A DNA stretch of 48,340 bases, from assembly GCA_016209945.1 (NCBI GenBank), contig JACQVD010000078.1, positions 1-48,340 of the forward strand, in the 5' to 3' direction. The notes beneath the pieces were generated by a model. It did not search any database. It was not told where the DNA came from and worked only from the letters and a program-made list of their open reading frames with translations. Origin of the DNA: Gemmatimonadota bacterium. GTDB lineage: Bacteria; Gemmatimonadota; Gemmatimonadetes; Palauibacterales; KS3-K002. Position numbers and translations under genes: made by a program. Below, piece by piece: positions 3,616 to 38,973 of this stretch; the stretch's first letter is position 1; each line of letters opens with the position of its first letter.

Positions 3616-4263
3616 ATGGTGGGCGGCCTCATCGGACGGAAGGTCGCGATGACGCGGGTCTTCGGACCCGACGGCGCCTCGATCCCGGTCACGGTGATCG
3701 AGGCGGGTCCGTGTCCGGTCCTCCGGGTGAAGACGGCGGAGCGGGACGGCTACTCCGCGGTCGCCCTGGGGTTCGGCCGGCGGAAGCCGAAGAGGACGCC
3801 GAAGGCACTCGGGGCGCAGGCGACGAAGGCGGGGCTCGAGCACGCGCCGCGGGTCGTGCGGGAGTTTCCGGTGGCCTCGGCTGGCGGGCCCGAGGCGGCA
3901 ATACCGGAGCCCGCGCCCGGCCAGGTCGTGACGGTGAGCGTTTTCGAGCCGGGCGAGCGCGTGAAGGTGACCGGTTGGTCGAAGGGTCGCGGGTTTCAAG
4001 GGGTGGTGAAGCGCCACGGGTTCGCCGGCGGCCCGGGCACGCACGGGCAGCCGTCGATCAGGGTGCCGGGCTCGGTGGGGCCCGGGACCGATCCGTCGCG
4101 CGTCATCAAGGGGCGGCGGATGGCCGGCCACATGGGGAACGAGCGCTGCACCGTGCGGCACCTGGAGGTCGTGAAGGTGGACGCGGAGCGCAACCTGCTG
4201 CTCGTGAAGGGTGCGGTGCCGGGTCCGCGGGGCGGGATGCTGCTGATTCGGAAGGAACGGTAG
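3616..4263 (+). CDS. rplC: 50S ribosomal protein L3
   Basis: 215 aa, [13 protein letters not shown]...[10 protein letters not shown] and a [14 protein letters not shown] motif. Confidence 0.97.
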
Positions 4264-4275
4264 CGGGTCGAGGCG

Positions 4276-4950
4276 ATGGCGACGGAAGGGCTCAAGGCCC
4301 CGTACTTCACGGCGGACGGCAGGGCCGACGGGATGCGCGAGCTCCCGCGCGAGGTCTTCGACGGCGTCGTGCACGAAGCGGCGCTGTACGCCGCGGTGAA
4401 GGGCACGCTGGCGAACCAGCGCCGGGGGACGGCGTCCGCGAAGACGAGGGCCGAGGTGAGCGGCGGCGGCCGGAAGCCGTGGCGCCAGAAGGGGACGGGC
4501 CGCGCGCGCCAGGGCACCATCCGCGCACCGCACTGGCGGGGCGGTGGGATCGTGCATCCGCCGAAGCCTCGGGACTGGCGCGAGGAGGTCCCGAAAGCGG
4601 TGAAGACCCTCGCCCGCCGCTCCGCGCTGAACGCGCGGGCGCGGGAGAACGCGCTCCTCGTCGTCGAGGCGCTGAGGCTGGAGACGGTGAAGACGCGCGC
4701 GCTCGTGCAGTGGCTCGCGCGCCTGGGCCTGGAGGAGCGGAACGTGCTGATCCTCACGCTCGGGCACCGGCCCGACGTGGTCCGCGCGGGGCGGAACCTC
4801 CGGAACGTGCGGGTTCGGCCGTTCGGACAGGAGTCGTCGTACGACGTCCTGTGGGCCGACGGCGTCGTGGTGGAAGAGGGCGCGCTCGGCGCAGCGGCGG
4901 AGCCCGCGGGCGCCGGGCGTGTCGATCGGGCGGCGGTGCGAGATGCTTGA
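4276..4950 (+). CDS. rplD: 50S ribosomal protein L4
   Basis: 224 aa with the SGGGRKPWRQKGTGRARQGT motif. Position is syntenic. Confidence 0.97.
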   Translation: MATEGLKAPYFTADGRADGMRELPREVFDGVVHEAALYAAVKGTLANQRRGTASAKTRAEVSGGGRKPWRQKGTGRARQGTIRAPHWRGGGIVHPPKPRDWREEVPKAVKTLARRSALNARARENALLVVEALRLETVKTRALVQWLARLGLEERNVLILTLGHRPDVVRAGRNLRNVRVRPFGQESSYDVLWADGVVVEEGALGAAAEPAGAGRVDRAAVRDA

Positions 4951-5239
4951 TCCACGCGAGGTGATCCGCCGGCCGATCGTGACGGAGAAGACGACGGCGC
5001 AGCAGGAGGCGCTGCGGCGCTACGCGTTCGAAGTCACGCCGGAGGCGACGAAGCGCGAGATCGCGCACGCCGTGGAGTCGCTCTTCAGCGTGCGCGTGGA
5101 GTCGGTCCGGACGATGCGGTACCGTGGGAAGACGCGGCGCGCCCGGTTCGCGCGGCTCCCGGGTCGCCGCCCCGCGTGGAAGAAGGCGGTGGTCACGTTG
5201 GCAGAGGGGGAGTCGATCCCCCTCTTCGAGACGGCATAG
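4943..5239 (+). CDS. rplW: 50S ribosomal protein L23
   Basis: [17 protein letters not shown]... The ATG at 4943 overlaps the rplD stop by 8 nt. The track ORF begins at GTG 4919, but the L23 homology starts at 4943. Confidence 0.93.
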
Positions 5240-5261: not shown

Positions 5262-6113
5262 ATGGGCATTCGCAAGTTCAAGCCGACGTCGTCGGGAACG
5301 CGCTTCCGCTCGGTCTCGGATTTCTCCGAGATCACGAAGGCGGAGCCGGAGAAGAGCCTCCTGGAGCCGCTCACGAAGAGTGGCGGGAGGGACAACTTCG
5401 GGCACATCACCGCGTACCGGCGCGGCGGCGGCCACAAGCGCACGTACCGCCGGATCGACTTCAAGCGCGACAAGCGCGGGATCCCGGCGAAGGTCGCGGC
5501 GATCGAGTACGATCCCAACCGGTCGGCGCGGATCGCGCTCCTCCACTACGCCGACGGCGAGAAGCGGTACATCCTGCATCCGCGCGGCCTCGAGGTGGGC
5601 GCGACGGTGGTCGCGGGGCCCGGCGCGGACATCAAGGTCGGGAACGCCGTGCCGCTGCGTGAGGTCCCGCTGGGCGAGACGGTTCACAACATCGAGCTGG
5701 TCGCGGGGAAGGGCGGGCAGATCTGCCGGTCGGCGGGGAGCGGTGCGCAGGTGGTCGCCAAGGAGGGAGCGCACGTGACCCTGAAGCTCCCCTCCACCGA
5801 GGTGCGGAAGGTACGGGCGGAGTGCTACGCCACGATCGGGCAGGTGGGGAACCTGGAGCACGAGCTCGTCTCCAGCGGGAAGGCGGGGCGGTCTCGCTGG
5901 CTCGGACGCCGGCCGATTGTGCGGGGCGTGGCCATGAATCCCGTGGACCATCCTCTGGGCGGCGGGGAGGGGAAGAGCTCCGGGGGCCGGCCGGCCTGCT
6001 CCCCGTGGGGGAAGCCCGAAGGGCGCAAGACCCGGGACCCGCACAAGAAGTCGAAGGCACTCATCGTGCGCCCGCGGCGCCGCGGGAAGGCGACCGCGGG
6101 CGGTGCCGTGTAG
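5262..6113 (+). CDS. rplB: 50S ribosomal protein L2
   Basis: [15 protein letters not shown]... and [16 protein letters not shown] motifs. In-frame internal ATG of track ORF 5124..6113. Confidence 0.97.
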
Positions 6114-22062: not shown

Positions 22063-24401
<2,339 letters not shown>

Positions 24402-24423
24402 GGATCGGGTCGGGCCTAGTCCG

Positions 24424-25422
24424 GTGCCTGTCTTGAGCCTCGTCACGGGCGCGGACGGTTTCGCGGGGCAACATCTGATCGCCCACCTTCTGGCGACCGG
24501 CCGCGAGGTCGTGGGCGCCGTGAAGGGCTTGCCGCCGCGGCTCACGACGCTCTCCCCGGAAGACGCGGCCAGGGTCGCCTGGGTTCCCTTCGACCTGGAA
24601 GACCGGGAGAGCGTGAGAAGCGTCGTGCTCGGGCACCGCGTGTCGGAGGTGTACCATCTCGCCGCGGTCACGTCGGTCGCGCGTTCGTGGTCCGACGCGG
24701 CGGTCGCCTTTCGGGTCAACGCCATCGGTACCCTCTGGCTTCTCGAGTCGCTGGCGGACGCTCTCCGCAGTGGATTCTCGGACCCGAAGATCGTGATCAC
24801 GGGCTCGGCGGAGGTGTACGGCGCGAGCGCGGAGGAGCGGCTCCCGCTCACGGAGGACGCGCCGCTGAAGCCGCTCAGCCCCTACGCGGTGTCGAAGGCG
24901 GTACAGGAGCTTTTGGCATTGCAGTGCCACCGGGCGTGGGGGTGCCGGGTGGTCGTGACGCGGAGTTTCAACCACACTGGCCCCGGACAGCGGCCGCCCT
25001 TCGTCGCGGCGGAGCTGGCCGACCAGGTCGCGCGCCTCGCGCGGGCGGGACGCCGGGGCGCCATCGTCGTGGGAAACGTGGAGGTGCGGCGCGACTTCAG
25101 CGACGTCCGGGATGTGGTGCGCGCTTACAAGCTTCTGGTCGAACGCGGGGAGCCCGGCGCGGTCTACAACGTCTGTAGCGGCGTGTCCGTGTCGATCCGG
25201 GAGCTCCTGGGGTTGCTGGCCCAGATCGCCGGGATCGAGGTGGAGTGCCGGGTGGACCCCTCACGGCTCCGTCCGGCGGACGTGCCGGAGTTCTACGGCA
25301 GCCCGAGAGCCCTTGAAGCCGCGACGGGCTGGCGTGCGGAGATCCCGCTGCGGAAGACGTTGCACGACCTGTTGCAGCATGCTCGGGCTGAGGAGTCCCT
25401 CGACGCGGGGGTGCGCAGATGA
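24424..25422 (+). CDS. rmd: GDP-4-dehydro-6-deoxy-D-mannose reductase-like SDR (Rmd type, GDP-D-rhamnose forming)
   Basis: LVTGADGFAGQHL, SPYAVSKAVQE (YxxxK), RSFNHTGPGQ. It lies immediately downstream of gmd. The D-rhamnose versus other 6-deoxyhexose outcome is inferred. Confidence 0.7.
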   Translation: MPVLSLVTGADGFAGQHLIAHLLATGREVVGAVKGLPPRLTTLSPEDAARVAWVPFDLEDRESVRSVVLGHRVSEVYHLAAVTSVARSWSDAAVAFRVNAIGTLWLLESLADALRSGFSDPKIVITGSAEVYGASAEERLPLTEDAPLKPLSPYAVSKAVQELLALQCHRAWGCRVVVTRSFNHTGPGQRPPFVAAELADQVARLARAGRRGAIVVGNVEVRRDFSDVRDVVRAYKLLVERGEPGAVYNVCSGVSVSIRELLGLLAQIAGIEVECRVDPSRLRPADVPEFYGSPRALEAATGWRAEIPLRKTLHDLLQHARAEESLDAGVRR

Positions 25423-26741
25423 ACGTGGGGGTCATCGGGACGGGGTACGTCGGCCTGGTCGTCGGCGCGTGCCTCGCCGAGACCGGGAACGATGTCGTCT
25501 GCGCGGACATCGACCCGGAGAAGATCCGGAAGCTCAGCGCAGGTGACATCCCGATCTACGAGCCGGGCCTCGAGCCCCTGCTGCGACGCAACCTGGCGAC
25601 CGGGCGGCTGCGGTTCACCACCTCCGTGGCCGAGGCGGCCCGCGCGTCCACCGTGATCTTCATCGCGGTCGGGACGCCTCCCCACGAGGACGGCTCCGCG
25701 GATCTCCAGCATGTGCTGGCCGTGGCCGAGGAGATCGGCAAGGCCATGAACGGCGAAAAGGTCGTGCTCACCAAGAGCACGGTCCCGGTGGGCACAGCGC
25801 AGCGGGTGCGCGAGGCGATCGAGCTCCACACGCGCCACCGCGTCCACATCTGTTCCAACCCGGAGTTCCTGAAGGAAGGGGCGGCGGTCGAGGACTTCAT
25901 GAAGCCGGATCGGGTCGTGATCGGGACGGAATCCGAGCACGCCAAGGAGATCCTCCGCGAGCTGTACGCGCCCTTCGTCCGGACGGGGAACCCGATCGTG
26001 TTCATGGATCTCGCGAGCGCGGAGCTGACGAAGTACGCCGCGAACGCCATGCTCGCCACGCGGATCAGCTTCATGAACGAGGTCGCGCAGCTCTGCGAGC
26101 GGGTCGGCGCGGACGTGGATCTCGTGCGGTACGGCCTGGGGACCGACCGCCGGATCGGCCCGAGCTTCCTCTTCCCGGGGGTGGGCTACGGTGGCTCTTG
26201 CTTCCCGAAGGACGTACGCGCGCTCGTCCGCGCGGGCGCGGAACTCGGGTGCGAGCTCAAGATCGTGAGAGCGCTGGAGGCGGTGAACGAGGCGCAGAAG
26301 CGCGTGCTCCTCGAGAAGATCGATGCGCACTTCGGGCGCCAGGCGCTCCGGGGACGCCTCTTCGCGATCTGGGGCCTGTCGTTCAAGCCCGAGACCGATG
26401 ACTTACGGGAAGCGCCCTCCATCGTGACCGTCGGGGGTCTCCTGGAGCGCGGTGCCGTGCTGCGGGTCCACGACCCGCAGGCGCTGGCGAATGCGCGGCA
26501 GATCTTCGGCGATCGGGTCACGTACTGCCCGCGCGCCTACGACGCGCTGGAGGGCGCGGAGGCGCTCGTCATCATGACGGAGTGGCTCGAATATCGGCGC
26601 CCGGACTTCCAGCGGATGAAGACGCTGCTGAAGGATCCGGTCGTCTTCGACGGCAGGAACCTGTACGATCCGGAGCGCATGGAGGCCAGGGGCTTCACCT
26701 ACCACTCGGTCGGGCGCAGGGCGGTGCGGTGCGATTCATAG
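25419..26741 (+). CDS. ugd: UDP-glucose 6-dehydrogenase
   Basis: 440 aa, [46 protein letters not shown] overlap with rmd. Confidence 0.92.
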
Positions 26742-27697
26742 TCACGGGTGGGGCCGGGTTCCTGGGGTCCCATGTGGTCGAGCGACTCCTCGCGCAGGGA
26801 CACGAGGTCGTCGCGATCGACAATCTCATCACCGGCCGGTGGCTCAACCTTGAGCCGCTGGCGCGGGACGGGCGCCTTGGCTTTCTCCAGCAGGATGTCA
26901 CGGAGTTCATCGCCGTGGACGGCGAGGTCCACGGCGTCTTCCACTTCGCCTCCCCGGCGAGCCCGGGGGACTATCTCGCCCTCCCCATCCAGACGCTGAA
27001 GGTCGGTGCCCTGGGCACCCACAAGGCGCTGGGCCTCGCGCGGGCGAAAGGCGCCCGCTTCCTCCTCGCCTCGACCTCCGAGGTCTACGGCGATCCTGCG
27101 GTGCATCCACAGCCGGAAACCTACTGGGGTCATGTGAACCCGGTGGGTCCCCGGGGCGTCTACGACGAAGCCAAGCGGTTCGCCGAGGCGCTCACCATGG
27201 CGTACCACCGGGTGCATGGCCTGGAGACGCGCATCGCGCGGATCTTCAATACGTACGGCCCCCGGATGCGGCCCAACGACGGGCGGGTCGTCTCGAACTT
27301 CATCGTCCAGGCGCTGCGCGGCGAGCCGCTCACGGTCTACGGCGACGGTCGGCAGACGCGCTCGTTCTGCTACGTGGAGGACATGCTGGACGGCATCCTG
27401 CGCCTGTTCGAGAGCGACCACGTGGGGCCCGTGAATCTGGGGAATCCGGACGAGCACACGGTGCTGGAGCTCGCGGAACTCGTGCGGGAGGCGACCGGTG
27501 CGCACGTGCCGATCGAGCACCGGCCGCTGCCGGAGGACGATCCGAAGGTGCGGCGCCCCGACATCTCGCTGGCGCGTCGCGTACTCGGCTGGGAGCCGCG
27601 GGTCTCGCTGGAGGAGGGGCTGCGGCAGACGGTCGCCTACTTCCGGCAGATCGTGGGCGACATCACCGAGGAATCCGATCGGCGGGCGGGACGATGA
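26729..27697 (+). CDS. uxs: UDP-glucuronate decarboxylase (UDP-xylose synthase)
   Basis: [62 protein letters not shown] 26729 overlaps ugd by 13 nt. Confidence 0.9.
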
Positions 27698-28446
27698 AAC
27701 TGGCCGTGGTGATCCCGGTGTACAACGAGCGGCTGACGATCGAGGAGATCGTGCGGCGCGTGCGGGCCGCGCCCGTGGAGAAAGAGATCATCGTGGTGGA
27801 CGACGCCTCCACGGACGGAACGCGCGCGGTTCTGGAGGCGATATACGCGCGCGGCGAGATCGATCGGCTGATCCTGCAGCCGGTGAACCGCGGCAAGGGC
27901 GCGGCGATCCGCGCAGGGATCGCCCGGGCGACGGGCGGTGCGGTCGTCGTCCAGGACGCTGACCTCGAATACGATCCGCGGGAATACCTGAAGCTCCTCG
28001 CGCCCATCGAGGAGGGCGTCGCCGATGTCGTGTACGGGTCCCGCTTCCGGACGACGGAGCTCCAGAGGGTGCTCTACTTCTGGCACTACGTGGGGAACAG
28101 GTTTCTCACCCTCTGCTCCAACATGCTGACGAACCTGAACCTCACGGACATGGAGACGTGCTACAAGATGTTCCGCCGCGAGGTGATCCAGGGGATCGAG
28201 ATCGAGGAGGACCGGTTCGGCTTCGAGCCCGAGATCACGGCGAAGGTGGGCCTGGGAGGCTGGCGGGTGTACGAGGTGGGGATCTCCTACCGCGGGCGCA
28301 CGTACAGCGAGGGAAAGAAGATCCACTGGCAGGACGGCGTGCGCGCCCTCTGGTGCATCCTCAAGTACGGGCTCCTTCGCCGGTTCGTGCGTCGGCGAGG
28401 GCGGACCCCGGCGTCGTCGGTTGCCGAACCGCGGGTCCGGGTCTAG
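27694..28446 (+). CDS. Family-2 glycosyltransferase, soluble DPM1/ArnC-like (polyprenyl-phosphate glycosyltransferase type)
   Basis: 250 aa, [27 protein letters not shown] (DxD). No TM segments are visible. ATGA overlap with uxs. Confidence 0.85.
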
Positions 28447-34891: not shown

Positions 34892-35277
34892 GATAGGGCC
34901 GGAGGCGAACCCGCGCCTGCTGGCTCTCCGACTCCAGCCTCGTTCCGTCTCTCCCTACTCGAGGTTGTCCGCACCCCGCGCCGATCACAGCAGGATGCTG
35001 GCCGTTGACGCTGTGTTGAAGCCGCGGCCTTAGTCTTAGCCCCGACGCTGCGAGGCGGGAGCGCGTTCGGGGCTGGAGCGAGGCCCCGAAGCACGCGGAG
35101 CGGATGGGGTGAGGGCTGGGTGGTCCCGCCACCAGCCGAGGAACTCTCTCGTGCCCCCGTGCGGCCGCTGGAGGCCCGGCCGGAGGGAGGGCGCGGGCCG
35201 CTTTGAGCACGGCCGCGCCGCCGCACGCCTGCGCAGTGGTCACGCTGGAATGGGACCCCAAACCACAGGAGGTCGTG

Positions 35278-35493
35278 ATGCGCAGGAAGCTCATCCCCGT
35301 GCTGTTGGCGCTGGGCCTGCTGGGCGGCACCGCCGTACCGGCGAACACCGCGGTCGTCCAGGACGAGCCTCAGGAGGAAGGCAAGCCGACTCAGGAGTGC
35401 ATCGGCAGCTGCAACAGCGACTTCCCGGGCGGCGACCCGTTCACGGTCGCGATCCGGGGCTGGTGCTACATCATCCGCTGCATGCTCCTCTGA
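35278..35493 (+). CDS. Small secreted Cys-rich protein: 71-aa precursor with a Sec signal peptide and a mature part with CX3C...CX4C
   Basis: ATG 35278 lies 5 nt after a perfect AGGAGG (35267-72). Sequence: MRRKLIPVLLALGLLGGTAVPANTAVVQDEPQEEGKPTQECIGSCNSDFPGGDPFTVAIRGWCYIIRCMLL. High GC3. It is embedded in track ORF 35203..35493. Confidence 0.7.
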   Translation: MRRKLIPVLLALGLLGGTAVPANTAVVQDEPQEEGKPTQECIGSCNSDFPGGDPFTVAIRGWCYIIRCMLL

Positions 35494-35527
35494 GGCCGGG
35501 CGCCTGGACCCAACTGGTCAGGGCAGG

Positions 35528-35563
35528 GGGACCGGGAGGTACGACACCGCGTATCCCGGTCCC
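35528..35563 (+). other. Perfect 10-bp stem-loop downstream of the mini-protein gene; possible attenuator or processing/stability hairpin
   Basis: GGGACCGGGA 35528-37 pairs with TCCCGGTCCC 35554-63 across a 16-nt loop. No U-tract follows. Confidence 0.45.
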
Positions 35564-35644
35564 GCGCCTGGCCGCCCTTCCCATTCAAGACGTGAACCTG
35601 GCGACGTGGCGATCGTGCGCGTGAACGACTGTGAGGTTTGACGC

Positions 35645-36745
35645 GTGAAGCGCGGATCGCATTCGCGTTGCCGCGGAAGAGGGGTTCACCTGCTCGCCGT
35701 CGGCACGGCGGCGCTGTGGGGACTGGCCTGGCTCGGCTGCGCCCGCGATCGGGATCTGCGCTCGCTGCCCCGGTTGACGCCGCTCCCGGATGCGGGGGCA
35801 ACGGCGTGGGCGGGCCTCCTCCATCCCTCGGCCATTCGAACGGACAGCGGCGGTCGCGTGTACGTCGCCGACATCGCTGACCGCAGCGTGAAAGTATTCG
35901 ATGCCTTTGGCACGCCGATCACGACGCTGGGAGGCACGGGCAGGGGCCCGGGCGAGTTCCAACGCATCCAGGACTTCGAAGTCATCGCCGGCGAGGTCAT
36001 CGTGCTCGACTCCGGACTCCGACGGGTGGTGCGCATGACCGAGGATGGCAGCGTGCTGGGGTCGTGGCCCACAGAGGGAGAGGAGGTGCTCGCTTCGCTC
36101 GGAGCGGACGTGCTGATCCTGGCGAACAGCCCGGAGTGGAGCCTGGTGCCGCCGGATGGGAGGACGCGACCGCCGCTGCTCCGGGTCCTTGATCTCCAGG
36201 GTGAGACTCGCTATCGGCTCGGCGAGCGGCAGCCGAGCAAGACGCCTTTTGCCGACTACGTCGCGAACTTCGTGCTCCCCGCAGGCACCCCGGATGGCCG
36301 CCGGATTTGGCTGGCCCGCCTGAACGACCCCGTGGTCGAGGTCTTCTCCAGTGAAACGCGTGCCTCGCGATGGATTGGCCGGCACGTCCCGTTCGACTGG
36401 CGCAGGATCGCGCCGGATTTCGTGCCGTCTCAGGCGATGCTCACGCCGGCGGGCCGCGCGGCGATCCCGTTCGATCCCGTGTCTCTGGACATCGCCACCG
36501 ACGCGCTGGGCCGAGCCTACATCCTCACGGCCCTCACTCCGGATCGGAACGAGGGCCGGCCCCGTCGAGTGGGGGTGGACATCCTGGATCCCCGGGACGG
36601 GAAGGTGACGCGCTACGTCGCGCCGGAACCGGCCACTCACATCGCGGTCTCGCCGGACGGAGGAATCCTATACCTCGTGGACGAGCGCGAGGCTCGGGTA
36701 CGCCTCTACGCGCACCGGCGCGAAGGGAGCGGGGACAGGCGGTGA
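35645..36745 (+). CDS. NHL-repeat / 6-bladed beta-propeller lipoprotein
   Basis: Signal plus lipobox-like AWLGC. NHL-type blades: GRVYVADIADRSVKVFDAFG, LGGTGRGPGEFQRIQDF, VIVLDSGLRRVVRM, ...ILYLVDEREARVRLY. GTG start. Confidence 0.8.
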   Translation: MKRGSHSRCRGRGVHLLAVGTAALWGLAWLGCARDRDLRSLPRLTPLPDAGATAWAGLLHPSAIRTDSGGRVYVADIADRSVKVFDAFGTPITTLGGTGRGPGEFQRIQDFEVIAGEVIVLDSGLRRVVRMTEDGSVLGSWPTEGEEVLASLGADVLILANSPEWSLVPPDGRTRPPLLRVLDLQGETRYRLGERQPSKTPFADYVANFVLPAGTPDGRRIWLARLNDPVVEVFSSETRASRWIGRHVPFDWRRIAPDFVPSQAMLTPAGRAAIPFDPVSLDIATDALGRAYILTALTPDRNEGRPRRVGVDILDPRDGKVTRYVAPEPATHIAVSPDGGILYLVDEREARVRLYAHRREGSGDRR

Positions 36746-36776
36746 GGTGTGAGGTTGACTCCTCCCTGAGCTTGCC

Positions 36777-37511
36777 GTGAGGGTGGAGGCGAAGGACCTC
36801 GTCTGCCGGTACGGCGTGCGGTGGCGGAAGGGAAGGCCGGCGCTCCGCGGGGTCGAATTCGACGCGGCCGGCCCGGTCGTGGGACTCGTGGGTCCCAACG
36901 GGGCGGGGAAGACCACGCTGCTCCGGTGTGTGGCCGGTTTCCTTGCGCCCTCCGCGGGCGCCGTCACGGTGGCCGGTCTCGACCCGGTGAGCTACCGCAG
37001 GCGTCACGGCATCGGCTACCTCCCGGAGCGCATGGCGCTCCCCGCCTACGCGCGCGTGGAGTCTTTTCTCAGGACCGTCGCGAGCCTGCGGCGGGACCGC
37101 TCCGCCGACGCCGTGGAGGAGGTCATCCGCTGGACGGCGATCGAGGGAGTGCGTCGCGAGCGAATCGGCAACCTCTCCCGTGGTTTCCAGAAGCGCGTCG
37201 CGTTGGCCCTTGTAGAGCTCGGGCGCCCGCCCTTCCTGGTGCTGGACGAGCCCACGAACGGTCTGGACCCGATCGCCATCCATGACCTGCGCGAGCGCGT
37301 CGCCGGTTGGCGCGCGGATGGGCGACTCGTGCTCGTCTCGTCGCACCAGCTCGACGAGGTGCAGCGTCTGGCGGACGAGGTGTTGCTCCTGTGGGAAGGC
37401 CGTGTTCGCGCCCATCTCACTCGGGAGGAGTTGAGTGCCAAGGGGCCGGGCTCCCTGGATGCCTGGTTCGCAGAGCGACCCTGGCAGGCGGGCGAGCGGC
37501 GGCACGCGTGA
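36777..37511 (+). CDS. ABC transporter ATP-binding protein (ABC-2 exporter type)
   Basis: Walker A GPNGAGKTT, Q-loop region IGYLPE, signature LSRGFQKRV, Walker B FLVLDEPTNGLD, H-loop SSHQLDEV. All motifs are intact. Confidence 0.92.
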   Translation: MRVEAKDLVCRYGVRWRKGRPALRGVEFDAAGPVVGLVGPNGAGKTTLLRCVAGFLAPSAGAVTVAGLDPVSYRRRHGIGYLPERMALPAYARVESFLRTVASLRRDRSADAVEEVIRWTAIEGVRRERIGNLSRGFQKRVALALVELGRPPFLVLDEPTNGLDPIAIHDLRERVAGWRADGRLVLVSSHQLDEVQRLADEVLLLWEGRVRAHLTREELSAKGPGSLDAWFAERPWQAGERRHA

Positions 37512-38266
37512 CCCGCGTGTCTGGGAGCCCCTGGCGATCGAGCTGGTGCGCGGCTTGGCGGTGGAGCTGGAGCCGCTGGCTCTTCCACAGGCCCGGCCCG
37601 TTCGGTTTGGCCTTTCTCGTGTTGGTGGTGCCCGCGGCGGCGTTCGCTCTCGCCGGTATGGGCGGCGGCACGGAGTGGGCGGCGGCGGTGCGGCGGACGT
37701 TCCTCCTCGGCTCGTTTCTCGCTGCGCTCTTGGTCTCCAAGGGGCTCGCCGATGACGCGTGGAGAGACGGGTACATCGTGTGGTGGCTCCAGAAAGGGCA
37801 GACCGCGGCGCGGTTCGTCCTGACCCGACTCGTGCTCGATACGGTCTTCGTACTCGCGCTCGTCTGTCTGTGGAGCCTCCTGGGAACCCTCGCGCTCAGG
37901 TTCGGGTCGCCGGATGGCATCTTCCTACGCGCGCTCCCGGCCGAGGCGGTCGGGATCGCTCTTGCCGTGTCACTCGTGGCGTTTCTTTCCGCAGCGGGTT
38001 CCGAGCGCGATTCGGATCTTGCCGTTGTGATCCTGCTCCTGGGAGCGGTGTGGAACGTGGGATTCTTTGCGGACATCCCGGGGTGGCTGCACGCCCTTGG
38101 CCGCGTGCTGCTGCCCCCCCTGGACTCGCTGGGGCAGGTGCGGGAGGCGCTCCAGCGGGGCGACCTCCGGGCGGCTCTCGGGCGATCCGCGTGGCCGCTG
38201 GCGTACTGCGGGGCGCTCTGGGTCGGGACGCTGGGGCTCGTCTCCCGCCGGGTGCCTCACGCATGA
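37508..38266 (+). CDS. Six-TM membrane protein, the presumptive permease partner of the ABC ATPase
   Basis: GTG 37508 forms a GTGA overlap with the ATPase stop. About six hydrophobic segments follow a Trp/Arg-rich N-terminus (SPWRSSWCAAWRWSWSRW). I recognise no family motif. Confidence 0.75.
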   Translation: MTRVSGSPWRSSWCAAWRWSWSRWLFHRPGPFGLAFLVLVVPAAAFALAGMGGGTEWAAAVRRTFLLGSFLAALLVSKGLADDAWRDGYIVWWLQKGQTAARFVLTRLVLDTVFVLALVCLWSLLGTLALRFGSPDGIFLRALPAEAVGIALAVSLVAFLSAAGSERDSDLAVVILLLGAVWNVGFFADIPGWLHALGRVLLPPLDSLGQVREALQRGDLRAALGRSAWPLAYCGALWVGTLGLVSRRVPHA

Positions 38267-38973
38267 ACGAGACACCGGTCCAGGCCATCAAGGAGTGGCC
38301 CTCGACCGAGCGGCCGCGGGAGCGGCTCCGAGGGCTCGGGCCCGCGGCGCTGCGCACCCCGGAACTCCTGGCGATCATCTTCGGTACCGGGTCGGCCCGC
38401 AGGTCCGCGTTGCAGGTGGCCGAGGATCTCTACGAGCGGTTCGATCGGTCGCTGCGGAGGCTCGCCGCGGTGCCCGTCGCGCAGCTGGAGGCTGTGCCTG
38501 GGGTTGGAGCGGCCCGGGCGGTGACGGTCCAGGCCGCTCTCGAGCTCGGGCGCCGGGCGGTGAAGGAGACTCGACCGGAGAGCGAGCGGATCGTGTCTCC
38601 GCGGGACGTGTACATGCGGTTTGAGCTCCGACTCCGCGATCTGCGCCAGGAGGAGTTCCACGTGCTGCTCCTGAACACCCAGAACGCGGTGATCCGCGAG
38701 GTGATGGTGAGCCGTGGGATCCTCGACGCGTCGGTCGTCCATCCCCGGGAGGTGTTCGCGCCCGCGCTCGTGGAAGCCGCGGCATCGGTCGTGCTCGTGC
38801 ACAACCACCCGAGCGGCGATCCTACGCCATCGGCCGCCGACCGCGAGGTGACGCGGCAGATGTGCGAGGCGGGCCGGGTGCTCGGGATCCCGGTGCGGGA
38901 CCACGTGATTGTGGGAAACGGGCGGTATATTAGTTTTCTGGACGCCGGCCTCCTTCGCGAGCTGGAGCGGTAG
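38263..38973 (+). CDS. radC: RadC-like JAB/MPN domain protein (UPF0758)
   Basis: ERPRERL...G...L...ELLAI....G, an HhH region, and the JAMM motif VLVHNHPSGDPTPSAAD. ATGA overlap with the permease stop. Confidence 0.92.
   Translation: MNETPVQAIKEWPSTERPRERLRGLGPAALRTPELLAIIFGTGSARRSALQVAEDLYERFDRSLRRLAAVPVAQLEAVPGVGAARAVTVQAALELGRRAVKETRPESERIVSPRDVYMRFELRLRDLRQEEFHVLLLNTQNAVIREVMVSRGILDASVVHPREVFAPALVEAAASVVLVHNHPSGDPTPSAADREVTRQMCEAGRVLGIPVRDHVIVGNGRYISFLDAGLLRELER

Follow-up and report, generated by a model that had tools for sequence, protein, structure and literature searches.

The window analysed here is a stretch of 48,340 nucleotides from a Gemmatimonadetes metagenome-assembled genome (GenBank assembly GCA_016209945.1, contig JACQVD010000078.1, which bears locus tags HY702_04085 and HY702_04090), and the element under study is a gene cassette at positions 35278-38266 encoding a secreted, Cys-rich mini-protein, a propeller lipoprotein and an ATP-binding cassette (ABC) pump. 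Both the cassette and the mini-protein family are specific to Gemmatimonadota and were previously undescribed. Across about 45 loci, surveyed by hidden Markov model scans and clustering, an ABC-2-type exporter is the constant partner of the peptide gene, whereas the helper gene between them is swappable and varies together with the disulfide geometry of the peptide. By analogy with known peptide loci, the mini-protein is most likely a secreted effector, bacteriocin-like or possibly a signal. The features of this part of the window are as follows (individual loci are referred to by number, L001 and so on, where they must be told apart).

Up to 34891: secA, the last gene 5' of the cassette
34892-35277, forward strand: non-coding gap of 386 nt, the presumed promoter or regulatory region
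35278-35493, forward strand: mini-protein gene, 71 amino acids
35528-35563, forward strand: GC-rich hairpin with a perfect 10-bp stem and a 16-nt loop
35645-36745, forward strand: propeller lipoprotein gene, 366 amino acids
36777-37511, forward strand: ABC ATPase gene, 244 amino acids, ABC-2/ABCA-like class
37508-38266, forward strand: presumed permease gene, 252 amino acids, integral membrane protein
38263-38973, forward strand: radC, with a match to the RadC model

Re-reading of the coordinates bore out the first-pass annotation of this DNA, made from the sequence alone, which had described five co-directional genes behind the 386-nt gap and a progressive tightening of their junctions. The spacer between the mini-protein and propeller genes is 151 nt and contains the 10-bp stem-loop, that between the propeller and ATPase genes is 31 nt, the stop of the ATPase gene overlaps the start of the permease gene in GTGA, and the permease stop overlaps the radC start in ATGA. 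The cassette is chromosomal, has a host-like GC content and is without flanking repeats.

The mini-protein open reading frame (ORF) is a real, conserved gene under purifying selection. A ribosome-binding site (AGGAGG) lies 6 nt 5' of the ATG, and the third-position GC content is 0.93 in a genome of approximately 70% GC. The product has a Sec-type signal peptide (MRRK, a hydrophobic core and an end ...PANTA) and a mature part of about 45 amino acids, whose four Cys residues (C41, C45, C63 and C68) lie in the motif C-x3-C-x2-DFP...A-x-RGWCYIIRC. A search with this single sequence returned the self-match only; the family was recovered from ORFs neighbouring propeller homologues and then with a profile of seven such ORFs. 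Each contig with a propeller orthologue carries, directly upstream, an ORF of 58-69 amino acids that shares the architecture of the window mini-protein, namely a Sec-type signal (K/R-rich start, hydrophobic core and A-x-A-like end) followed by the motif C-x3-C-x2-[DE]F-[PD]...RG(W/Y)CY[IL]IR-x0-1-C. The family profile yielded at least 133 clusters at 90% identity (55-87 amino acids), none of which is named or carries a Pfam domain. When 1.84 billion representatives were searched exhaustively with HMMER, only 75 representatives at 50% identity emerged; the family is small and closely knit, and its proteins range from 55 to 100 amino acids. One genome per species was also scanned, and the 36 loci obtained are all in Gemmatimonadota (Gemmatimonadales, Gemmatimonadaceae, Longimicrobiales and HR33). 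The motif RG(W/Y)CY is invariant throughout the family, and the ratio of non-synonymous to synonymous substitution (dN/dS) for close gene pairs is 0.10-0.36 (0.31 for the window and L001). Conservation of the mini-ORF, on which the first-pass annotation had made its reading depend, is thus evident from both the family and these ratios.

Searches of existing resources did not place the peptide. The window mini-protein had no match in Pfam and only a sub-threshold chance match in NCBIfam (CoaP_CTERM, 15.5 bits against a cut-off of 35), and a Pfam scan of 47 family members returned signal-peptide or chance matches, with no bacteriocin family among them. A PDB profile search with the family gave no match. 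PADLOC models of anti-phage defence systems matched neither the peptide, the propeller, the permease nor the thioredoxin-like protein described below, and recognised the ATPase as a generic P-loop protein only. Literature searches on DUF5128 and on the motif RGWCY found no papers.

Two tandem paralogous peptide genes are present in at least five loci. A second family of small secreted Cys-peptides, unrelated to the first, was also observed directly upstream of two tandem mini-protein genes in cassettes of the Gemmatimonadaceae type (L019 7570-7761, L018 1194-1475, L020 7521-7754 and L029 7659-7892; also L050-L055 and L057), which therefore carry three successive secreted Cys-peptide genes. An example of its mature sequence is SVCPNRPDPDPDCSSILIGYWQDPTQPWCPIVGCDWLVIY.

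Exactly four Cys residues were found in all 120 members of the mini-protein family examined. The C2-C3 spacing is almost constant at 16-19 residues, and the C1-C2 and C3-C4 spacings covary across the family as follows.

C1-C2 spacing 3, C3-C4 spacing 4-5: 25 members
C1-C2 spacing 7, C3-C4 spacing 7: 85 members
C1-C2 spacing 11-12, C3-C4 spacing 7: 10 members

AlphaFold2, supplied with 120 sequences, modelled the mature peptide as a helix (residues 17-26), a loop and a second helix (residues 32-48) with one Cys pair per helix; the predicted local distance difference test score (pLDDT) was 80 overall and approximately 95 in the core. Foldseek gave no meaningful match to this model (E > 6), the peptide being too small. 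The peptide is accordingly predicted to form a helix-loop-helix with two nested disulfides, C2-C3 as the inner and C1-C4 as the outer. The outer Cys residues of the two helices shift in concert by one turn, as two nested staples would permit but a single four-Cys metal site would not.

In every locus that could be read downstream, with the exception of L049, an ABC ATPase gene lies 0.1-2 kb 3' of the peptide gene. The window ATPase matches PF00005 at 84 bits and reaches no NCBIfam equivalog cut-off, and its closest PDB relatives are ABCA4, ABCA3, ABCA7, NosF and LptB. All ABC motifs had been described as intact; Walker A, Walker B, the D-loop and the H-loop are indeed canonical, but the Q-loop Gln is replaced by Glu (GYLPER, aligned to CPQ of ABCA4; the signature is LSRGFQ). 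This position is occupied by E or D in all cassette ATPases but one, which has Ala. The window permease has approximately six hydrophobic segments, counted by eye, and is 65% identical to its counterpart in L001; it has no Pfam or PDB match of its own and no hhalign match to the other cassette permeases. Of nine permeases from related loci, five match PF12679, and the families represented are ABC2_membrane_2, ABC2_membrane_3 and ABC2_membrane (best E 7e-9). Permeases of the L003 type and of Gemmatimonadales are mutually homologous (hhalign probability 74-96%). The proposal of an ABC-2 ATPase and permease pair therefore holds for the ATPase, which is of the ABC-2/ABCA-like class, whereas the permease has no family match and is assigned presumptively to the ABC-2 type from its position, its hydrophobic segments and the permeases of related loci. 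The top PDB matches of the permease profile were four PmtD sequences, at non-significant E values of 0.4-0.7, and NosY was among the weak matches. PmtD is an exporter of phenol-soluble modulin peptides.

Gemmatimonadales cassettes encode another multi-pass membrane protein, 244-266 amino acids long, 3' of the ATPase gene (L029 10539-11339, L022 9950-10684 and L045 10426-11178). The members scanned had no Pfam or NCBIfam match, and they fall into two subgroups with a weak mutual relation (hhalign 48%).

The propeller gene lies directly 3' of the peptide gene in all 11 loci of the window clade (the window, L001, L003, L005, L008, L009, L010, L026, L047, L048 and L049), each with a short peptide of the CX3C...CX4-5C type, so that the synteny in relatives anticipated by the first-pass annotation was found. 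The permease and ATPase genes follow in nine of these 11 loci; the ATPase gene of L008 reaches the end of its contig, and the contig of L009 ends within the permease gene. The propeller is absent from all loci with peptides of the CX7C type. In 16 Gemmatimonadales/Gemmatimonadaceae loci the helper position is taken by a thioredoxin-fold protein of 160-185 amino acids, either a lipoprotein or membrane-anchored, whose CxxC and cis-Pro 'VP' motif are invariant in 14 sequences and whose profile matches thioredoxin-like, StoA and tryparedoxin structures (best E 1.5e-5). In L022, L030, L032 and L041 the permease gene follows the peptide gene directly with no helper between them. The propeller is consequently not a core part of the wider system, its place elsewhere being held by a thioredoxin-fold protein or by nothing.

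The propeller itself had been credited with NHL-type blades, and this was confirmed both by profile and by fold. It scores 27.9 bits against PF17170 (6-bladed beta-propeller; NHL/DUF5128; cut-off 22.9) and 19.7 bits against the NHL repeat model, just below the cut-off of 20. Its AlphaFold2 model (pLDDT 89.6, predicted template-modelling score 0.86) has as top PDB matches in Foldseek the NHL domains of Brat, TRIM71 and TRIM2, with E of about 1e-13 and target-normalised template-modelling scores of 0.7-0.77. The lipobox Cys is C32 and the mature part is free of Cys. Orthologues are 40-68% identical, the highest value being that of L001, and the lipobox Cys after a hydrophobic segment is kept in eight of nine, the eight with a complete N-terminus. 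The possibility that the propeller is a peptide-modifying enzyme was considered and dropped: the fold search returned only generic NHL and WD40 propellers without a prominent catalytic relative (PAL at rank 48), and the orthologues have no conserved His. The Cys-free mature part, the lack of a conserved His and the likeness to NHL binding domains make the modelled protein look like a binding module, not an enzyme or a redox partner.

Two cassettes of the propeller clade also encode, after the ATPase, an extra secreted protein of about 416 amino acids (L047 8969-10219; L048 4654-5904, where it is split in two). It has no Pfam or PADLOC match, and a sub-threshold chance match only in NCBIfam.

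The cassette is accessory, being present or absent among related genomes. In Gemmatimonadales it occupies a slot in the order uvrA, small coiled-coil genes, pspA, AI-2E-type transporter, DUF1611, cassette, cysS. Metagenome contigs were retrieved with the DUF1611 neighbour as bait, and 53 of them had a readable interval between DUF1611 and cysS. The full cassette was found in seven and no peptide in the other 46; in approximately 25 of these 46, DUF1611 and cysS are less than 400 nt apart. The seven full contigs carry the second small Cys peptide, two tandem mini-protein genes, the thioredoxin-fold gene and the permease gene, and those of sufficient length carry the ATPase gene and the further membrane protein after the permease. 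In L116 (9140-11393) the same slot holds an IS200-like transposase gene on the minus strand together with a cassette-type permease and ATPase (GYAPEAP) without a peptide gene, which may represent an orphan pump. Several cassette-less contigs contain, between DUF1611 and cysS, a solitary ABC-ATPase-like ORF whose Q-loop position is occupied by Ala (L081 4189-4974, L082 2253-3098, L072 2912-3895, L086 1396-2259 and L105 7964-9862). In its variable content the slot looks like a hotspot.

Flanks and regulators likewise vary in the propeller clade (secA/radC, a sigma-54 activator, AraC-type regulators, IS21), and the flanks of the L001 cassette differ from those in the window. Transposase genes adjoin two cassettes of this clade (rve-type integrase and IS21 IstB; L003 9390-10552 and L048 140-907), an arrangement consistent with movement of the cassette between genomic sites.

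Third-position GC in the 386-nt gap is unbiased (0.74/0.74/0.68 for the three frames), and neither a sigma-70-like site nor an Rfam match was found within it. Conservation with L001 is confined to the last 30 nt or so, including the ribosome-binding site. L001 has a near-consensus sigma-54 promoter, TGGCACGCGCTGTGCT, at 5566-5581, 66 nt upstream of the peptide gene, and a gene for a sigma-54 enhancer-binding protein just upstream of this promoter at 3960-5009; an activator fragment is also present in L008 (2-598). A promoter and an activator gene of the L001 type are both absent from the window, and a sigma-54 promoter was therefore rejected for the window cassette. AraC-type regulators lie beside the cassettes of L047 and L049.

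The hairpin behind the mini-protein gene begins 35 nt after its stop codon, where 35528-35537 pairs with 35554-35563, and has no U-tract. Seven other loci of the propeller clade were folded, and each has a GC-rich hairpin of 6-12 bp, unrelated in sequence, at the corresponding place. Recurrence in all eight folded loci in spite of unrelated sequence suggests an excess of peptide transcript over that of the helper and pump, and the hairpin is a candidate attenuator or transcript-stabilising element. Scans of 34.7-39.2 kb for Rfam families, promoters and repeats returned nothing relevant; five terminator-like sites were reported, none of them at the mini-protein hairpin.

The first-pass annotation had coupled the cassette to radC. 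The gene is identified securely (229.6 bits against RadC NF000642, cut-off 180) and is probably co-transcribed with the cassette in the window, but the coupling is confined to the window: the nearest relative, L001, has no radC downstream, and none adjoins the cassette in the others of the approximately 45 loci. As a component of the system radC was therefore rejected; it is a bystander. Nor is the cassette strictly the only non-housekeeping block in the window, as had been stated, since 22063-28446 constitutes a further non-core block of surface-polysaccharide type (two UDP-glucose/GDP-mannose dehydrogenase genes, an NAD-dependent epimerase/dehydratase and a GT2 glycosyltransferase). Elsewhere, the uvrA-pspA interval of Gemmatimonadales contains three to five tandem genes for proteins of about 95 amino acids with an N-terminal transmembrane segment and a coiled-coil tail (three copies at 5005-5894 in L032; similar in L012, L015, L022, L023, L027, L034, L038, L045 and L046). 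These had no significant Pfam match (GvpG sub-threshold only), and the proteins may be partners of PspA.

The occurrence of one or more small secreted gene products, a hairpin, a helper and an ABC-2 pump in an accessory cassette leads to the interpretation that is tentatively favoured here by analogy, in which the peptide would be a secreted, disulfide-stapled effector that is handled by the lipoprotein and expelled by the pump for self-protection, release or both. After cleavage of the signal peptide, the mature 32-48 amino acids would fold in the periplasm as a doubly stapled helix-loop-helix, and the thioredoxin-fold helper, where present, would set or repair the disulfides. At the outer face of the inner membrane, the Cys-free propeller lipoprotein would bind the peptide much as LanI does. 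Powered by ATP, the ABC-2 pump would clear the amphipathic peptide from the inner membrane or its periplasmic face; like the action of LanFEG, SkfEF and PmtCD on their own peptides, this would shield the producer, promote release or both. The hairpin would yield more transcript for the peptide than for the helper and pump.

Several observations weigh against this interpretation. The nested disulfide connectivity is a prediction drawn from AlphaFold2 secondary structure and the covariation of Cys spacings. Membrane-active peptides are typically cationic, whereas the core of this one ranges from anionic to neutral (median net charge -2). Its C-terminal helix (A-I-R-G-W-C-Y-I-I) hardly varies between orders, which a conserved partner would explain no less well than a toxin target. 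Sec export in a diderm host ends in the periplasm, and the neighbourhood encodes no component for the outer membrane and no adaptor. In L049 the peptide and propeller genes have no ABC genes beside them. The window and L001 ATPases are 32-40% identical to the other cassette ATPases and score 82-109 bits against them, compared with 61-79 bits against an unrelated ABC ATPase, and their pump gene order is inverted relative to the other cassettes; orthology between this pump and those of the other cassettes is not clear from sequence and could not be established. At the Q-loop position, Asp is also present in unrelated ABC ATPases on the same Gemmatimonadota contigs; the Glu/Asp 'E-loop', tried as a hallmark of LanF, was downgraded as non-discriminating and is not counted as evidence for a LanF-like role.

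Other explanations place the peptide within the envelope. It is rather unlikely that the peptide serves an envelope machine as periplasmic partner or regulatory subunit instead of being released as an effector, with the ABC-2 pump as mechanotransducer or exporter and the peptide and lipoprotein as periplasmic acceptor or adaptor, on the models of NosD/NosL for NosFY and LolA for LolCDE. Such a role would suit an anionic peptide whose C-terminal helix motif is very strongly conserved across orders, a chromosomal cassette of host-like GC without flanking repeats, and the proximity of pspA and other envelope genes in Gemmatimonadales. Permeases of related loci also fall in ABC2_membrane_2, the Pfam family that includes NosY, and NosY is among the weak PDB matches. 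The absence of the cassette from 46 of the 53 related contigs that share its flanks nonetheless argues against a core envelope function, tandem paralogous peptides accompanied by an unrelated secreted Cys peptide suit a peptide-product locus better, a hairpin of 32-48 amino acids offers no cavity for a lipid or other cargo, and the helper is interchangeable or dispensable (propeller, thioredoxin-like or none). It is unlikely, too, that the peptide founds a bacterial periplasmic family of twin-CXnC proteins, structural counterparts of proteins of the mitochondrial intermembrane space, acting as the dedicated ligand or adaptor of an ABC-2 mechanotransducer, and is not antimicrobial; cytoplasmic ATP hydrolysis would then load the hairpin onto the NHL propeller or unload it, or present it to the thioredoxin-fold enzyme. 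If true, a single little-studied phylum would possess its own, new type of envelope machine.

Four invariant Cys on two helices and, in 16 loci, a dedicated periplasmic thioredoxin-fold CxxC partner recall redox chemistry, many proteins of the TlpA/ResA/StoA class being reductants, and there is a loose parallel to NosL/NosDFY in the combination of a lipoprotein with an ABC-2 pump. The peptide could on these grounds be a redox or metal carrier, a periplasmic counterpart of mitochondrial twin-CXnC proteins such as Cox17, kept reduced by a TlpA-like protein and passing metal or reducing equivalents to a periplasmic target, with the pump supplying or removing a ligand. This is improbable: a lone metal site built from four Cys would not survive the shift of the outer Cys pair (from 3/4 to 7/7), the family conserves no further Cys and no His or Met, the propeller found in place of the thioredoxin-fold helper is Cys-free, and no locus has a linked gene for a target metalloenzyme. 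Little probability is likewise given to a diffusible signal, or pheromone, sensed by the propeller lipoprotein and exported by the pump. A conserved small secreted gene product with a hairpin behind its gene, the regulators adjoining some cassettes (the sigma-54 activator and promoter of L001, AraC-type in L047 and L049) and the typical use of NHL propellers as binding modules are in keeping with it; it is opposed by the lack of a linked sensor kinase or response regulator, a lipoprotein without means to relay a signal into the cell, the absence of an adjacent regulator in the window, and the fact that most cassettes have no propeller. That the mini-ORF is spurious, or the gene adjacency due to chance, might have been supposed from the self-only match of the single sequence and the absence of Pfam matches for the mini-protein gene and permease. 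The chance of this is negligible: a third-position GC content of 0.93 with a strong ribosome-binding site, more than 130 homologues with invariant Cys and dN/dS well below 1, and a gene order that recurs in about 45 independent loci stand against it, and it is refuted by conservation.

Gemmatimonadota are widespread with few cultured members, and their secreted peptides and competition systems are experimentally almost unknown. The present family, hitherto unannotated, has a simple signature of a signal peptide followed by C-x3/7-C-[DN]-x-[DE]-F...RGWCY-x3-7-C, and the family and its neighbours could be converted at once into profile models for annotation whichever explanation holds. If bioactive, the peptide would be a Sec-dependent, unmodified, disulfide-stapled hairpin that is easily made recombinantly or synthetically, and the NHL propeller of its protection module would have a previously undescribed role. 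If not bioactive, it would point to an unknown envelope function.

With regard to known systems, Pfam, NCBIfam and PADLOC place the cassette in none, in agreement with the first-pass annotation, which had expected it to lie outside characterised systems; assignment is limited to generic classes (NHL propeller, thioredoxin fold, RadC and, with the permease placed presumptively, ABC-2 exporter). In lantibiotic immunity, LanFEG clears the membrane of the lantibiotic, to which the lipoprotein LanI binds (PMC5786555). The cassette resembles LanI/LanFEG (e.g. NisI/NisFEG) in combining a small secreted peptide, a lipoprotein and an ABC pump with a separate ATPase and a presumed permease of six transmembrane segments. 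The 'E-loop' of LanF has Glu at the position of the Q-loop Gln (bioRxiv 10.1101/2025.10.09.681468; Okuda et al. 2010 as cited in PMC4742701). The window ATPase has Glu there also, a likeness that is non-specific here, and scores 118.5 bits against the LanF family TIGR03740, below the cut-off of 309.75. The cassette differs in that its peptide has a Sec signal and is not a lanthipeptide, no LanB, LanC or LanM is encoded in any locus, a single permease gene replaces the LanE and LanG pair, the lipoprotein is an NHL propeller unrelated to LanI, and the host is diderm.

Glycocins have two nested disulfides, and their clusters contain thioredoxin-like genes and an ABC transporter (PMC12457901). Sublancin 168, glycocin F and thermoglycocin are, like the cassette peptide as predicted, small two-helix peptides with two nested disulfides, and the thioredoxin-like proteins and ABC transporter of their clusters parallel the thioredoxin-fold helper and pump of the Gemmatimonadales cassettes. 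In contrast, the cassette has no glycosyltransferase, its peptide loop has no conserved Ser, Thr or Cys, and it uses a Sec signal where glycocins have a leader removed by a C39-peptidase ABC transporter. The cassette pump consists of a separate ATPase and permease with no peptidase domain, and there is no sequence similarity.

The precursor of enterotoxin STII of Escherichia coli is, like that of the window mini-protein, about 70 amino acids long. STII is exported by Sec, acquires two disulfides in the periplasm and then leaves through an ABC pump (PMC5985334). The cassette peptide shares the Sec export and, as predicted, the two periplasmic disulfides, and its removal by an ABC pump is proposed; it has no sequence similarity to STII. 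The STII exporter, MacAB-TolC, differs from the cassette pump in that MacB is a fusion of nucleotide-binding and transmembrane domains with a large periplasmic domain and needs MacA and TolC, neither of which the cassette encodes.

In the skfABCEFGH locus of Bacillus subtilis and in the lactococcin 972 cassettes, the gene of a peptide toxin is accompanied by an ABC ATPase and permease that serve in export or immunity. A thioredoxin-like protein, SkfH, is encoded in the skf locus as well, and lactococcin 972 is Sec-dependent with a dedicated ABC system; these systems belong to Firmicutes and Actinobacteria. The present cassette differs from both, since no gene for a radical-SAM enzyme or a CAAX-type protease was found in any cassette locus examined, and no mini-protein member matches the Lactococcin_972 Pfam model.

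The NosDFY and pyrroloquinoline quinone (PQQ)-associated clusters, to which the first-pass annotation had likened the cassette, share with it an ABC-2-class ATPase and a permease of six transmembrane segments, in the cassette a presumed one, with periplasmic or lipoprotein partners, and NosF is among the better PDB relatives of the window ATPase (98 bits). The analogy does not extend to membership. No NosD beta-helix, NosL or nosZ is present in the window cassette or its relatives, the ATPase scores 96.8 bits against the PQQ-associated TIGR03864 (cut-off 302.25), the propeller lies outside the propeller family of that system and no PQQ dehydrogenase is encoded in the window. Neither NosDFY(L) nor the PQQ-associated system includes a Cys-rich mini-protein, and the pairing of this peptide family with an NHL propeller lipoprotein or a thioredoxin-fold helper is undescribed. 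Judged by these analogies, the layout of the cassette would appear most like that of a bacteriocin-type peptide encoded together with its producer's protection pump.

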